Virus genome (UHGV): UHGV-0354376
DNA: 13,577 nt
Source: a virus
Strand: one strand, 5' to 3'
The translations under genes and the position numbers were made by a program. Each line of letters begins with the position of its first letter. Positions within the stretch are counted from its first letter, which is position 1. Shown here one piece after another: positions 27 through 6,071 of the stretch. Below the pieces are notes generated by a model. The model was given only the letters and a program-made list of their open reading frames with translations, ran no database searches and was not told the DNA's origin.

Positions 27-1340
27 TTAACTTACTGATTTTAATAATCCTCCCGTACTGTTCTCGTGGCTATGGGGCATCAATGGGGCAAAATATGCCA
101 GCTTCTGATTCAGCATTGCGATCTGCTCTGCGCTGCTGTCAGCCATCCATGCACCGTAAACATTGAACACCATCTGCGCGCTCGCATGCCCCATCTGACT
201 GGCAATAAAACTCGGGTTTGCACCAGCAGATAATGACCAGCACGCATAGGTATGTCGTGACTGGTACGCCTTTCTGTGTCTAATCCCCGCGCGCTTTAGT
301 GCAGCTTCCCATGAGTCGCCTACTGAATCGACCCGGTAGATAAATCCGACCTGCTTACTGCGTCTGACCACATGCGGGTTAAAGACGAATGTACACTCAT
401 GGGTCACCGAACGACCGTACTCACGTAACTGCACTTCAATATGATATTGCCTGCCCAGCCTTGTCATTTCAGCCTGATTTTTCAGGATACTGATTGCGGG
501 CTGGATAAGATGCACCACTCGATCTGTACTTGCCTCGGTTTTCGGTAGAGTGAACTCACCAAGTTTCGTATAATTACGCCTGACGGTAATTGTTCCCGCT
601 TTCAGGTCGATATCTTCCCAGGCCAGGGAGACCAGTTCCCCGTGACGCATTCCTGTGTACACTGCTAATGACCACAGGTTTTTCGTCTGCTGATGCCGGC
701 ATGCATCTATCAGGCGAATAAATTCATCACGAGAAAGAGGATCTGGTTCTGCCCGGGCTTTTTTCAGAGGCTTAATTCCCTCGAATGGGTTCACCTCTAA
801 GTAACCGTGATCCGCAGCAAACTGAAACATTCCGGCCATTGTCGTCATGTAATAGTTCACAGTAACAACGCTTCGCCCTTTTGCCGGGGATTTGTTTTTC
901 GTCGGATTCTGGTAACCAATTAGCAAATCTTTCCTGAGATACAGCAATTCCTCTTTGGTTACTGCTGACGCTAGGCGATTACCTCCGATCCTCGGCACCA
1001 TATTCCTTGCGACAGACTCATAGCGATTGAATGCGTTCGCGCAGATTTCCATCCGTTTCAGATCCAGCCATTTTTCTTCAAGTTCTTTCACTGTAATGTC
1101 TTTTTTACTTACACCAAAAGCCTTGAGGTTAGGGGAGTCAGGAAACTGGGTTGCATAATCAAAGGTTCCTGTGCGGATGGCAAAACATACTGATGTCCGC
1201 AGTTCCCCGGCTATCTTCCTGTTCTTAGCGGTGTCAGGGACACCAAGACTTTCCCTGACACGCTTACCTTTAAAATTAAACCAGATGCGTAAAGTGCCAC
1301 CGTGGTTTTCGACGCCTGTTGGATATGTGGCTTTATCCAT
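27..1340 (-). CDS. int: Phage tyrosine integrase (lambda Int family site-specific recombinase)
   Basis: 437 aa ORF with the C-terminal catalytic signature of tyrosine recombinases (RHGEL...SRHTYACW...NVYGAW, i.e. Arg, His-x-x-Arg and Tyr nucleophile region) and an N-terminal arm-binding-like region. It sits at the edge of the prophage, directly downstream of an excisionase-like gene. Confidence 0.9.
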   Translation of the reverse strand: MDKATYPTGVENHGGTLRIWFNFKGKRVRESLGVPDTAKNRKIAGELRTSVCFAIRTGTFDYATQFPDSPNLKAFGVSKKDITVKELEEKWLDLKRMEICANAFNRYESVARNMVPRIGGNRLASAVTKEELLYLRKDLLIGYQNPTKNKSPAKGRSVVTVNYYMTTMAGMFQFAADHGYLEVNPFEGIKPLKKARAEPDPLSRDEFIRLIDACRHQQTKNLWSLAVYTGMRHGELVSLAWEDIDLKAGTITVRRNYTKLGEFTLPKTEASTDRVVHLIQPAISILKNQAEMTRLGRQYHIEVQLREYGRSVTHECTFVFNPHVVRRSKQVGFIYRVDSVGDSWEAALKRAGIRHRKAYQSRHTYACWSLSAGANPSFIASQMGHASAQMVFNVYGAWMADSSAEQIAMLNQKLAYFAPLMPHSHENSTGGLLKSVS

Positions 1341-3144: not shown

Positions 3145-3450
3145 TCACTCCCCCTTCACGCCAATGCCCGCGGCGCTTGCTGATTCTTCATGTGCGCGTT
3201 TAGCAGCGTTAAGTATTGCTGCCAGCGGCGTATATCCGCCGTCCATTCGAATTGTGTTGTGGATGGCGGCTATCGTGTCACGCAGTTTGCTGTGGCTCGC
3301 AGAAAGTTCATCTATGCGCTTCTCTGCGGATTCCAGCTCATCCAGCAGCGCCAGCACATCCTGAGTGGGAGCCCTAAAGTTCGGAATGAAGTTGTCTTTC
3401 GCTCTCTCTGCCGCTTCACGCAGCGCCGCACGTTTGTTGAGTGCTGTCAT
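3145..3450 (-). CDS. Hypothetical phage early protein, coiled-coil rich (Ea-like)
   Basis: 101 aa ORF with a strong RBS (AAGGAG about 8 nt upstream of the ATG at 3450). It is the first gene of the leftward operon; composition is alpha-helical and Ala/Glu/Leu rich. Confidence 0.6.
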   Translation of the reverse strand: MTALNKRAALREAAERAKDNFIPNFRAPTQDVLALLDELESAEKRIDELSASHSKLRDTIAAIHNTIRMDGGYTPLAAILNAAKRAHEESASAAGIGVKGE

Positions 3451-4015
3451 TGGGCTGCTCCTTGTCTGGCTCTGCTCAAGAGCTGGTTAAACATCATGGT
3501 CAGGCTGTTACTACACCCAAACGGCATATCGTTAACACGGTAAGTAGGAATTCCCTTGCGAACACCAGACTTCACGATCCGGCCGGTGCCATAGAGTTGC
3601 GATAATGCGCCATCCTCTTGCCCGGGTGGATTGGGTTATGAGCCCGTCGCCCGGTGATGCCCTTTTCTGTTGTGCCCTGAAAAAGGCTGGCGGTTACCGG
3701 ACAAACGGGAAAACACCGGGCCGCCAGAACAGGGAGTTACTTGTTATTGCTTTGGCCTGCTTTTAACCACATCAGGCGCGGTGGTAGGTATCTTCGGGCG
3801 GGGTGCTAAGGGGGTGATTAGCCCTTGCCCTTAACACTCCTGCTGGTTTTGGTATTCCTGGCTTGGGTATCGCCACCAGCTATAGGAATTTGACTACGAG
3901 TTGCGGTTAATCAGGCCGCGCCTCTGTTACCCCTCCCGAAGACACCTGTAAGCGAATCATCCGGTTATTCATATGCCACCGGCGGCTGTCTTGCCTGTTC
4001 GCAGCTGATGAATTA

Positions 4016-4044
4016 AATATACCTGTGAGTAATTTTTGTGTAAA
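4016..4044 (-). promoter_or_regulatory. Candidate leftward early promoter (pL-like): -35 TTTACA, 17 bp spacer, -10 TATATT on the minus strand
   Basis: Read from the reverse complement of 4016-4044. It lies in an AT-rich island and is flanked by copies of the TAAAT.ACCTGT motif that also occurs in the cI-cro intergenic region. Sequence-based prediction only. Confidence 0.3.
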
Positions 4045-4156
4045 TACCTGTTGGTATATTTTTATTTACCTTAATGGCAACTAATTGCTTTTAATTGGAT
4101 TTTATTTAAGTAGGCGAGGCGTGTTATGCTCAAAAAAACACCAGAAAGGGCTTGGT

Positions 4157-4363
4157 ATGGAACGTGACGAACTGGAAGAAGACCGTGCGGCATTCATAGC
4201 TGGCGAGATTGGCGGCGCAGTTGTCGAATTGATAATTGGCGGAGTAGTGATTGACCGTGATGCGATCGTCGATTGTTTGGAAAGAAAACGACGTGCGGTG
4301 GGTAATGTGATCCACAAAGGTGTTCTGCGTGACGCCGCTGCTATGGTGAGAAAAGGGCAGTAA
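4157..4363 (+). CDS. Small hypothetical protein (68 aa), acidic N-terminus and Gly/Val/Ile-rich core; moron-like gene convergent with the repressor
   Basis: The ORF track starts at a TTG at 4085; the in-frame ATG at 4157 has AAAGGG 8-9 nt upstream. Codon usage is enterobacterial-like. It is followed 1 nt after its stop by a strong hairpin and preceded by an AT-rich promoter-like region. The overlapping minus-strand ORFs are low complexity. Confidence 0.45.
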   Translation: MERDELEEDRAAFIAGEIGGAVVELIIGGVVIDRDAIVDCLERKRRAVGNVIHKGVLRDAAAMVRKGQ

Positions 4364-4364
4364 A

Positions 4365-4386
4365 AACCCGGCTCAGTGGCCGGGTT
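4365..4386. terminator. Bidirectional Rho-independent terminator hairpin between the convergent small gene and cI
   Basis: Perfect 8 bp inverted repeat AACCCGGC / GCCGGGTT with a 6 nt loop (TCAGTG). It is flanked by AAAAA on the 5' side (a U-tract for the minus-strand transcript) and a T-rich stretch on the 3' side. Confidence 0.55.
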
Positions 4387-4438
4387 AGATGTTATTTCTT
4401 AAAGAGTTAGGTCTGTTTCAACTATCCAAAGATAGCAG

Positions 4439-5149
4439 CTACAGTTTATTGTAAGCTATTGATTCATGGAGTAGAGCTTTACCCATGATATACAGTTGTT
4501 CCTGATTTTCTTCAGTTATATACCAGTCTTTGTACACTGGATTATCGGACAGCACTGCAAGCTGCAAGCCCTGCATTTGTAATCGCTTCACGTGGAAGTG
4601 TTGTCCGAAAACGAACGCATAAACACCGTCCACCTTGAAATTTCTTATCGAAATATCGAAAAACAACCTGTCACCAGACTGGATGGTTGGGCACATGCTG
4701 TCGCCATCTACAGTCATTACTTTAACGTCATCCTGAGAACGATTCCCGAAGAGTGAACGAGCGTGCTCAGTGGTGAACTCAATAGCGTGTAGAACCTCAA
4801 CAAACTCAGAAATCATGAAAGACCCTGGACCTGCACTCACAGTAAGATCGAGAACTTCTACACGATAAGTGTCGATATTGCGGGCGGGTACATCAATATC
4901 CATATTTGAGGTTGGGCCAAGACCATCCAACCATCCTCTGCTGATTTTCAAAGCATCTTCGATCTGCCGAGCCGCCTGTTCACCAATATTCCGCTTATTA
5001 GGTTTACCAACAGGGTAAAGCATCCGAGAGACAACAGTCGGATCAAGCCCTGCATTTTCAGCAAACTCTTTCTGGGTTTTATAGCGAGTTACCAACTCCT
5101 GAAGTTTGAGGCGTCGTAACTCGAAGATGTCAGGCGATTCAGTTTTCAT
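4439..5149 (-). CDS. CI-like prophage repressor (N-terminal HTH, C-terminal S24 LexA-like autopeptidase domain)
   Basis: 236 aa ORF with an N-terminal HTH-like region (QKEFAENAGLDPTVVSRM) and a C-terminal S24 peptidase signature (GDSM serine motif and a downstream Lys in HVKRL). It is divergent from a Cro-like gene across a 99 bp AT-rich region. The near-absence of an SD upstream of the ATG would fit a leaderless pRM-type transcript. Confidence 0.9.
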   Translation of the reverse strand: MKTESPDIFELRRLKLQELVTRYKTQKEFAENAGLDPTVVSRMLYPVGKPNKRNIGEQAARQIEDALKISRGWLDGLGPTSNMDIDVPARNIDTYRVEVLDLTVSAGPGSFMISEFVEVLHAIEFTTEHARSLFGNRSQDDVKVMTVDGDSMCPTIQSGDRLFFDISIRNFKVDGVYAFVFGQHFHVKRLQMQGLQLAVLSDNPVYKDWYITEENQEQLYIMGKALLHESIAYNKL

Positions 5150-5156
5150 AATTCCA

Positions 5157-5224
5157 TCTTACTTAAATTTACTTCAAGGTAAATGACCTGTGAGTATTGA
5201 CATGTATTTACTTAAAGGTATATT
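5157..5224. promoter_or_regulatory. Immunity switch region: candidate operator repeats overlapping a pR-like promoter (-35 TTGACA 5197-5202, 16 bp spacer, -10 TATATT 5219-5224)
   Basis: Three copies of TTACTT(A/C)AA, at about 5159, 5169 and 5208. Two form imperfect palindromes: TTTAC-TTCAAG-GTAAA (5168-5183) and TTTAC-TTAAAG-GTATA (5207-5222). The 11-mer ACCTGTGAGTA (5186-5196) sits immediately before the consensus -35. The cro ATG follows at 5249 with an AGGAGG RBS. Confidence 0.45.
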
Positions 5225-5248
5225 TAATTTCCAAACATAGGAGGCGTG

Positions 5249-5519: not shown

Positions 5520-6071
5520 GTGGGTAACGAACCAATCTGGAAAGTTGAACGTCAGCCAGTCTGGCTGGTGGTAGCGATTAAAAAAACGATTACCGATCTG
5601 CCTGGTGGATATGCCGAGGCGGCGGAATGGTTGGGGGTAACAGAGAACGCGCTGTTTAACCGTCTTCGTGTAGATGGCGACCAGATTTTCCCTATGGGAT
5701 GGGCGATGGTGCTACAGAAAGCCGCTGGCGTTAGCTACATAGCTGATGCGTTTTCTCGTCAAACAGATAACGGGATTCATATCCCTGGCGCAGCACCAGA
5801 AACAGAGAACGAAGAGATTGGCTTAAAGCTGGCTGAGCTGGTGGGCAGGCTTGGTGACTTGGTTAACGCATATCGTCGATACATCGATGATGGTGTGGTT
5901 GATAAAGGGGAATGGGACAGTCTGAACGAAATCGCCTATCAGTTCCGGGTAACGCTTATGACGTTTCTGAACCTGATTTCTCGAGTTTATTGCCTTCCAG
6001 AAAAGAGTGACGCCCGCGAGTGTGCAGCTCCGGGCGCCTTGGCGAACAACTCTTCGAGTATGGAGAAATAA
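5520..6071 (+). CDS. CII-like / YdaT-like regulatory protein with a putative HTH
   Basis: The ORF track runs from 5304, but a GTG at 5520 has AAGGGG 6 nt upstream and lies 29 nt after the cro stop. A putative HTH (AEAAEWLGVTENALFNRL) is present. Its position right after cro matches cII/ydaT-type genes; family assignment is tentative. Confidence 0.5.
   Translation: MGNEPIWKVERQPVWLVVAIKKTITDLPGGYAEAAEWLGVTENALFNRLRVDGDQIFPMGWAMVLQKAAGVSYIADAFSRQTDNGIHIPGAAPETENEEIGLKLAELVGRLGDLVNAYRRYIDDGVVDKGEWDSLNEIAYQFRVTLMTFLNLISRVYCLPEKSDARECAAPGALANNSSSMEK

Follow-up and report, generated by a model that had tools for sequence, protein, structure and literature searches.

The window analysed here, a 13,577-nt stretch of the virus genome UHGV-0354376, covers a mosaic lambdoid prophage from the integrase to the replication part, and it raises the question of which DNA sequence serves as the operator of the CI-like repressor that it encodes. 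An identical 11-mer, ACCTGTGAGTA, is found on the (+) strand on both sides of the repressor gene cI, at 4021-4031 and 5186-5196, and these are its only two exact copies in the window. The original prediction, made from the letters of the sequence, took the 11-mer as a candidate operator motif shared by the left (OL) and right (OR) operator regions, and left open a choice between it and the nearby TTTAC-N6-GTAAA palindromes. As it stated, the second copy directly adjoins TTGACA (5197-5202), the -35 box of the near-consensus rightward early promoter PR. Our analysis suggests that the two copies very probably form the cores of the operators OL1 and OR2 in a lambda-type immunity switch, and the view that they lie within OL/OR-type operator regions flanking a CI-like repressor gene, where they mark immunity specificity, thus appears to be right. 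However, the 11-mer itself is unlikely to be the operator motif, since each copy covers only positions 4-14 of a 16-bp dyad whose central bases are not conserved. The system as a whole appears to be an ordinary lambda-type switch between lysis and lysogeny, whose immunity specificity has not been described before.

Five predicted operator sites of one dyad family

The recognition unit that we propose is a 16-bp dyad with the consensus WW(T/G)AC-YY-NN-RR-GTAWW. Five strong sites of this form are found in the window, namely, OL1 and OL2 over the leftward early promoter PL, and OR3, OR2 and OR1 over PR and PRM, the putative promoter of the repressor gene (Table 1). Because the outer blocks are common to the dyads containing the 11-mer and to the TTTAC-N6-GTAAA sites, the latter being perfect at OR3 and having one mismatch at OR1, the two earlier candidates do not compete with each other; both are instances of one family, and an identical 11-mer core in two of its members is therefore unremarkable. 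The two copies belong to non-equivalent sites, as OL1 is located within the PL core promoter, between the -35 and -10 boxes and overlapping the -10 box, whereas OR2 is located upstream of PR, overlapping its -35 box by 2 bp. The true mirror partner of OL1 is OR1, since a repeat finder detects a 22-nt inverted repeat (91%) between 4011-4032 and 5208-5229, by which the OL1 region mirrors the OR1 region. OR3 covers the -35 box and the spacer of the putative PRM, and shares base 5183 with OR2. The centre-to-centre distance is 25 bp for OL1-OL2, 24 bp for OR1-OR2 and 15 bp for OR2-OR3.

Allowing at most one mismatch, WWKACYYNNRRGTAWW is found at five places in the two promoter regions and at one place elsewhere, with 11 strand-hits versus 0.68 expected, a number reached by 0/200 shuffles, and four of the five occurrences of TAC-N6-GTA in the window are within the operator regions. 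We also derived a symmetrised matrix from 28 distinct OR sites, taken from the window and from related loci, with no OL sites included. This OR-only matrix has five matches of at least 10 bits in the 13.6-kb window, which are the three OR sites plus OL1 and OL2, compared with a mean of 0.37 and a maximum of 2 matches on shuffles. Positions 1-7 and 10-16 of the matrix are highly informative, whereas positions 8-9 carry about 0.14 bit. OR2 is the weakest-scoring OR site throughout the window and its relatives (13.6-17.3 bits), which fits the rule that in well-studied lambdoid phages OR2 is by itself a weaker site than OR1 and becomes occupied through cooperative binding (PMC3317979).

The same sites account for the other motifs noticed earlier. 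TAAAT-N(0-2)-ACCTGT does occur three times (4014-4026, 4041-4051 and 5180-5191, the last formerly given as ending at 5190), but we rejected it as an extended motif: it is not coherent since its gap varies, and its TAAAT parts are the -10 box of PL, the -35 box of PL and the right half of OR3, respectively. The palindrome described as 14 bp long at 4044-4057 is real in its 5-bp arms (ATACC/GGTAT), but not over its full length, as its centre, TGTT, is non-palindromic. We also rejected two candidates for further operators. A functional OL3 in the window's clade, at the degenerate site 4065-4080, scores below 6 bits, and its right half decays in close relatives (AACAA, GACAA, GTCAA). A canonical OR3 positioned 25 bp left of OR2 (5158-5173, CTTACTTAAATTTACT) also scores below 6 bits with only its left half fitting, and the TAC conserved there is read as part of the -10 region of PRM. 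In addition, a weak operator-like sequence, ATTACTTTAACGTCAT, is located at 4716-4731 inside the repressor gene (8.6 bits) and probably occurs by chance.

Table 1. Predicted operators and promoters, and annotated genes, of the window (centres of sites are given relative to the assumed transcription starts).
Feature	Position	Strand	Sequence	Score or basis	Centre	Remark
OL1	4018-4033		TATACCTGTGAGTAAT (TATAC-CTGTGA-GTAAT)	18.9 bits, top match of the window	-16.5 from PL	contains 11-mer 4021-4031
OL2	4043-4058		AATACCTGTTGGTATA (AATAC-CTGTTG-GTATA)	13.5 bits	-41.5 from PL	site of the earlier 14-bp palindrome
Degenerate third OL site	4065-4080		TTTACCTTAATGGCAA	<6 bits		left half-site alone good
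OR3-equivalent	5168-5183		TTTACTTCAAGGTAAA (TTTAC-TTCAAG-GTAAA)	18.6 bits	-55.5 from PR; -26.5 from PRM	half-sites perfectly symmetric
OR2-equivalent	5183-5198		ATGACCTGTGAGTATT (ATGAC-CTGTGA-GTATT)	15.7 bits	-40.5 from PR; -41.5 from PRM	contains 11-mer 5186-5196
OR1-equivalent	5207-5222		TTTACTTAAAGGTATA (TTTAC-TTAAAG-GTATA)	18.8 bits	-16.5 from PR; -65.5 from PRM	between -35 and -10 of PR
PL, leftward early promoter	4016-4044	-	TTTACA-17-TATATT	promoter scan, 10/12 matches		
PR, rightward early promoter for cro	5197-5224	+	TTGACA-16-TATATT	promoter scan, 11/12 matches		
PRM (putative)	5156-5183	-	-35 TTTACC (5183-5178), -10 TAAGAT (5161-5156), 16-bp spacer	-10-like hexamer 6 nt before the repressor ATG		
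Integrase	27-1340	-				
68-aa open reading frame	4157-4363	+		PHROG 3975 (function unknown), without a Pfam match		between cI and OL, convergent with cI
CI-like repressor, 236 aa	4439-5149	-		Pfam Peptidase_S24 4.5e-17; PHROG 4 'transcriptional repressor' 2e-46		
Cro-like lytic repressor, 80 aa	5249-5491	+		PHROG 35 'transcriptional repressor' 9.6e-13		first gene of PR operon
CII-like activator (CII/YmfL-like)	5520-6071	+		PHROG 101 'CII-like transcriptional activator' 6e-41		after cro

Conserved half-sites and variable centres in related loci

Searching by DNA, we found this immunity region in none of the sequenced phages searched and in only one complete E. coli genome, as an E. coli O157:H16 prophage with 87% nucleotide identity. 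We scanned genome, viral and metagenome contigs, and sorted the relatives into three groups, namely, group A, about 30 loci with full-length repressor relatives (84-100% amino-acid identity); group B, 16 loci from Pantoea and from soil or plant metagenomes, with only the N-terminal domain of the repressor in common; and group C, about 97 loci with only the C-terminal domain in common. One 541-bp contig, L006 (NZ_JAVHZE010000104.1), belongs to an assembly of the actinobacterium Kocuria sabuli and encodes the C-terminal half of the repressor at 93% identity; it is most likely an assembly contamination.

The OR triplet is present in every group A and group B locus, and so is the OL pair, 25 bp apart, in every one of these loci whose fetched sequence extends that far. 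All relatives that share the N-terminal domain have OL1 at the corresponding place, and OL2 keeps its half-sites with a variable centre (CTAAAG, CTATTG, CTTTTG, CCATGA and others). Most group B loci also have a third OL site (12-14 bits), located 21-22 bp beyond OL2. Among the 25 distinct OR regions the starts of successive sites are 15 and 24 bp apart throughout, except that one locus has a 1-bp indel between OR2 and OR1. The register of OR3 and OR1 is conserved in these regions, and variation in OR3 is confined to the centre; the OR2 half-sites ATGAC...GTATT are kept in 24/25 of the distinct relatives, around a centre that takes at least 10 different forms.

In total, 25/30 outer columns of the OR regions are invariant and 15/18 central columns are variable (Fisher p = 9e-6), and 16/18 columns of the TAC/GTA cores are invariant versus 0/12 for the four central columns (p = 1e-6), although these p-values overstate independence, as the relatives are phylogenetically related. 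The same pattern is present within group A and within group B separately, and nearly all substitutions that separate the window's sites from those of the E. coli O157:H16 prophage hit the central six bases, so that ACCCGTGAGTA and ACTCCTGGGTA stand there in place of the two 11-mers. As for the earlier expectation that the motif should be conserved in related immunity regions, it holds for the half-sites of the 16-bp dyad, but not for the 11-mer, which is lost in close relatives.

The shared 11-mer as a probable by-product of a constrained consensus

In contigs whose repressor is 100% identical to that of the window, the 11-mer is intact at both positions, except in L092, where OR2 has ACTTGTGAGTA instead. 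At 97-98% repressor identity one or both copies are altered, and at 84-92% both are altered in most loci; relatives in the latter range have ACCCGTGAGTA and ACTCCTGGGTA at the two positions. In other lineages the same 11-mer is located in OR3, where it is inverted, or in OR2, in a distant locus of the Pantoea type. An exact 11-nt repeat that is located in both promoter regions and recurs in several distant relatives could also be a discrete element read by a different protein than the reader of the palindromes (Cro versus CI, or a second regulator). However, the 11-mer is flanked by the same complete half-sites as the palindromes have; in relatives its centre changes freely while the flanking half-sites stay; it is located at varying operators (OL1, OR2 or OR3) in either orientation; and other pairs of sites share a sequence of at least 11 nt as well, so that we regard such an element as very improbable. 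Specifically, some operator pair shares an 11-mer or longer sequence in 9/27 distinct related loci, the pair differing by lineage, and the analytic probability, computed from the matrix, of an 11-mer identity between some two of the five sites is about 0.07. The identity of OL1 and OR2 over 11 nt would thus be a by-product of a constrained consensus rather than a selected unit.

We read the exact 11-nt identity as chance within this constrained consensus, but that differs from the 11-mer repeat as such being a functionless coincidence. For the latter it can be said that about 22 exact 11-mer pairs are expected by chance in 13.6 kb (by the arithmetic N^2/2/4^11), and that even an exact 14-nt direct repeat, CAAGCCCTGCATTT, is found inside cI (4565-4578 and 5044-5057, in different reading frames), which looks like chance and illustrates that exact repeats this long occur without function. 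However, the chance expectation for both copies to fall inside the two promoter regions of about 100 bp is about 0.002-0.005, both copies are located in operator clusters and match the dyad with a full score, and the sites that contain them are conserved wherever the sequence of a relative extends over them, which leaves pure coincidence barely credible.

The 11-mer also contains TGTGA, the half-site core of the cAMP receptor protein (CRP), which might suggest a site for CRP or another host factor. However, TGTGA-N6-TCACA has 3 mismatches at 5189-5204, the copy at 4024 has no match within 3 mismatches, the window contains 41 such matches versus 50.7 expected, and TGTGA is not conserved in relatives. 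We therefore attach next to no probability to this explanation.

Operator sequence and the N-terminal domain of the repressor

The repressor consists of a predicted N-terminal helix-turn-helix domain (about residues 1-77) and a C-terminal S24 self-cleaving domain, in which Ala106-Gly107, Ser151 and Lys188 were located. The N-terminal-domain profile matches PDB 5d50 'Repressor' (E = 2.4e-7, residues 7-76), the closest solved relative of this domain. In a collection of 50,697 phage records, identity to the N-terminal domain does not exceed 41%, the value of the best match, mEp043 cI; for H-19B cI it is 32%.

The operator sequence tracks the N-terminal domain of the repressor, as judged from a natural domain swap in both directions. 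The group B repressors (228 aa) can be aligned with the protein of the window over residues ~1-77 and no further, a stretch in which TVVSRMLYP-GK-NKRNIGEQ-ARQIE is invariant, and their S24 domain is unrelated in sequence. These loci nevertheless keep all the sites, including the odd ATGAC...GTATT OR2. The group C repressors have the window-type C-terminal domain (~67% identity) with other N-termini, and none of the 97 group C loci contains clustered matrix matches, i.e., no match has a neighbour within 60 bp; 49 of the 58 matches in their 593 kb are one recurring sequence. At the same place, these loci have other dyads, ATAAC-N4-GTTAT and ATAGC-N4-GCTAT. The ~77-residue DNA-binding domain is thus fused to two unrelated S24 domains (in the window's 236-aa protein and in the 228-aa proteins of L007, L008 and L132-L145), and the window's C-terminal domain is also fused to at least three other N-terminal domains, which points to modular shuffling at the domain linker.

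This comparison also bears on whether the blocks are conserved merely as promoter hexamers and UP-like AT-rich DNA that no repressor binds. Such a reading draws on the fact that OL1 and OR1 overlap -10 boxes, OL2 and OR2 touch -35 boxes, and OR3 overlaps the -35 box of the putative PRM. However, the sibling prophages with other N-termini have equally good promoters but different dyads in the same positions. Furthermore, the dyad, in which 6 bp separate the symmetric TAC/GTA cores, is found five times, with some half-sites off the hexamers, and the variable columns fall precisely at the dyad centres. Conservation as promoter DNA only is therefore a very improbable explanation, and we retain the reading of these blocks as putative operators.

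Promoter geometry and the abutting OR2 and OR3

The PL hexamers (-35 at 4044-4039 and -10 at 4021-4016) are both conserved in full-length and Pantoea-type relatives. A second leftward promoter-like match (ATAACA-17-TAAAAT, 4099-4127 on the (-) strand, 9/12 matches) is located upstream of OL, and might be a secondary PL or chance. The best -35 box for the putative PRM, TTTACC, is the right half of OR3. A -10-like hexamer is located exactly 6 nt before the repressor ATG both here (TAAGAT) and in the Pantoea type (TATGAT), and two other immunity types have one there as well (TATATT in L003 and TATGAT in L004). This placement suggests a leaderless repressor mRNA that starts at the A of the ATG, at 5149. 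For the geometry in Table 1, we assumed that transcription starts at about 5231 from PR, about 4009 from PL and 5149 from PRM. In the sibling immunity type L003, three sites are centred at -67.5, -42.5 and -18.5 from the repressor ATG. As OR1 and OR2 of the window are located near the corresponding positions, both appear to be lambda-like, while OR3 is placed 8 bp further upstream, touching OR2.

A spacing of ~2.3 helical turns, which would permit cooperative binding in pairs, is fitted by OR1-OR2 and OL1-OL2, but not by OR2-OR3. The OR2-OR3 geometry is without indel in 25/25 distinct OR regions, across two repressor architectures, whereas sibling immunity types with the same C-terminal domain keep the canonical spacing of 24-25 bp. 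The abutting of OR2 and OR3 seems to be the only structural departure from the architecture of lambda, 434, P22 and 933W. It is conceivable but unlikely that this overlap encodes a mutually exclusive (anti-cooperative) toggle, in which OR2-bound repressor could activate PRM only as long as OR3 stayed unoccupied, and a dimer of Cro or repressor on OR3 would both block the -35 box of PRM and evict the activator. If true, such a toggle would be a variant of the lambda switch that achieves negative autoregulation without long-range looping.

A proposed model of the switch

The sequence comparison shows that the sites exist and cluster, how they are conserved, that they are inherited together with the DNA-binding domain, and where they are located relative to the promoters. 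From this we infer which proteins bind, how they cooperate, how PRM is activated and what OR3 does. Dimers of the 236-aa repressor, and presumably also of Cro, would recognise the 16-bp dyad via the N-terminal helix-turn-helix, reading the outer TAC/GTA blocks directly and leaving the two central base pairs essentially free. Repressor at OL1 and OL2 would block PL, and repressor at OR1 and OR2 would cover the spacer of PR and the edge of its -35 box, so that cro and the early right operon would be shut off. Lambda CI activates its own gene from OR2; likewise, the repressor bound at OR2 here, with its centre at about -41.5 from the predicted leaderless start of PRM, would be positioned to activate its own gene. 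OR3, when bound by excess repressor or by Cro, would shut off PRM, and induction would proceed by RecA-stimulated self-cleavage at Ala106-Gly107.

Several points weigh against this model. All the evidence for it comes from sequence. The sites were first defined by eye, and the matrix includes the window's own OR sites, albeit not its OL sites. The helix-turn-helix assignment depends on a weak match of the N-terminus to Pfam HTH_3 (434-Cro/C1-type; 8.7e-4, below the cutoff) and on one distant PDB match. The N-terminal domain and cro are always co-inherited in the compared loci, and therefore the comparison cannot separate CI, Cro or both as the reader of the sites. The putative PRM is weak (8/12 matches), falling below the threshold of the promoter scan, which did not call it, as expected for an activator-dependent promoter. 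Finally, the base pair shared by OR2 and OR3 is unfit for lambda-style pairwise cooperativity, and simultaneous occupancy of these two sites is doubtful.

Comparison with characterised immunity systems

The window resembles lambda in its divergent cI and cro genes, its three OR dyads over PR and PRM, its operators over PL beyond cI, its mirror-image OL and OR arrays, and the self-cleaving S24 domain at the C-terminus of its repressor, which has Ala-Gly, Ser and Lys. Lambda is also similar in the spacing of OR1-OR2 (24 bp) and OL1-OL2 (25 bp), in the position of OR2 at about -41.5 from the repressor start, and in the -10 box that precedes the ATG by 6 nt and points to a leaderless cI mRNA. The window differs from lambda in the 16-bp length and unrelated sequence of its operators; in having just two good OL sites in its clade; and in the small convergent gene between cI and OL, where lambda has rexAB. 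Moreover, there is no N-like open reading frame downstream of PL, OR3 is 15 bp from OR2, with one shared base pair, versus 23 bp in lambda, and OL and OR are ~1.19 kb apart versus ~2.3 kb.

PDB 5d50, which we take to be Rep of Salmonella phage SPC32H, differs from the window's protein in its C-terminal part, the latter having a LexA/CI-type S24 cleavage domain. That Rep protein is reported to bind as a tetramer and to be inactivated by an antirepressor (PMC9638917). In the phages 434, P22 and 933W studied by the Koudelka laboratory, the operators, including the five natural sites of 933W, are rotationally symmetric, with outer positions that are conserved and contacted and centres that are poorly conserved (PMC3317979). 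The window's sites are similarly symmetric, with conserved outer positions and a variable centre, but their half-site sequence is different. According to E. coli annotations, enterobacterial prophages of the e14/YmfL type have the same order of a LexA-family repressor, a small Cro-like regulator and a YmfL-family CII-like protein. However, these annotations carry no operator information, and in Nissle 1917 the prophage of this type encodes another repressor.

The predicted consensus, the five predicted sites and the promoter layout would define the operators of an uncharacterised enterobacterial prophage immunity group, which we found in Citrobacter, E. coli O157:H16 and Pantoea as well as in metagenomes from the gut and the environment. 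They would make homoimmune prophages predictable, including those whose repressors have unrelated C-terminal domains, and would provide a candidate orthogonal repressor/operator pair for circuit design as well as a natural domain-swap example, in which operator specificity travels with a ~77-residue N-terminal module. The general understanding of phage switches remains unchanged.

Gene context and the PL leader

The genes cI (-) and cro (+) are divergent, with the three OR sites between them within 5168-5222, and the counterparts of cro and the CII-like gene in the E. coli relative are annotated as 'transcriptional regulator' and 'YmfL family', respectively. The 68-aa open reading frame between cI and OL is missing from Pantoea-type relatives. 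It shares with cI a hairpin terminator at 4365-4386, and a conserved extended -10-like sequence, TGnTATGCT, is located near it at about 4122-4130.

The PL transcript would run for ~560 nt (3451-4009, (-) strand), with no N-like open reading frame, before the first sizeable gene, which is Ead/Ea22-like (3145-3450). The RNA from 4009 to 3760 folds at -96.6 kcal/mol (z = -4.3), and contains an 18-bp long-range helix, pairing ~3930-3947 with ~3786-3804, that persists in a 77%-identical relative in which the interior has been replaced. This stretch may be a leader or antitermination-type RNA. Searching the window, the PL leader included, against Rfam yielded no family match at the gathering score, only one sub-threshold match at the chance level (3687-3727). 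A compound hairpin, CUGGCGG...CCGCCAG followed by CCUUUUUC, is located at 3678-3727 on the (-) strand (-24.5 kcal/mol, z = -2.8), ~290-330 nt downstream of PL. It was not called by a simple terminator scan, and we consider it a candidate intrinsic terminator, to be read through by early-left transcription. A 42-bp piece of the leader (3946-3987) is found at 97.6% identity in the complete genomes of about 40 E. coli strains. In one of them, Nissle 1917, this piece is located directly downstream from the OL side of another prophage repressor of the LexA family and precedes a ClpX zinc-finger gene, after which the leader part 3618-3786 recurs.

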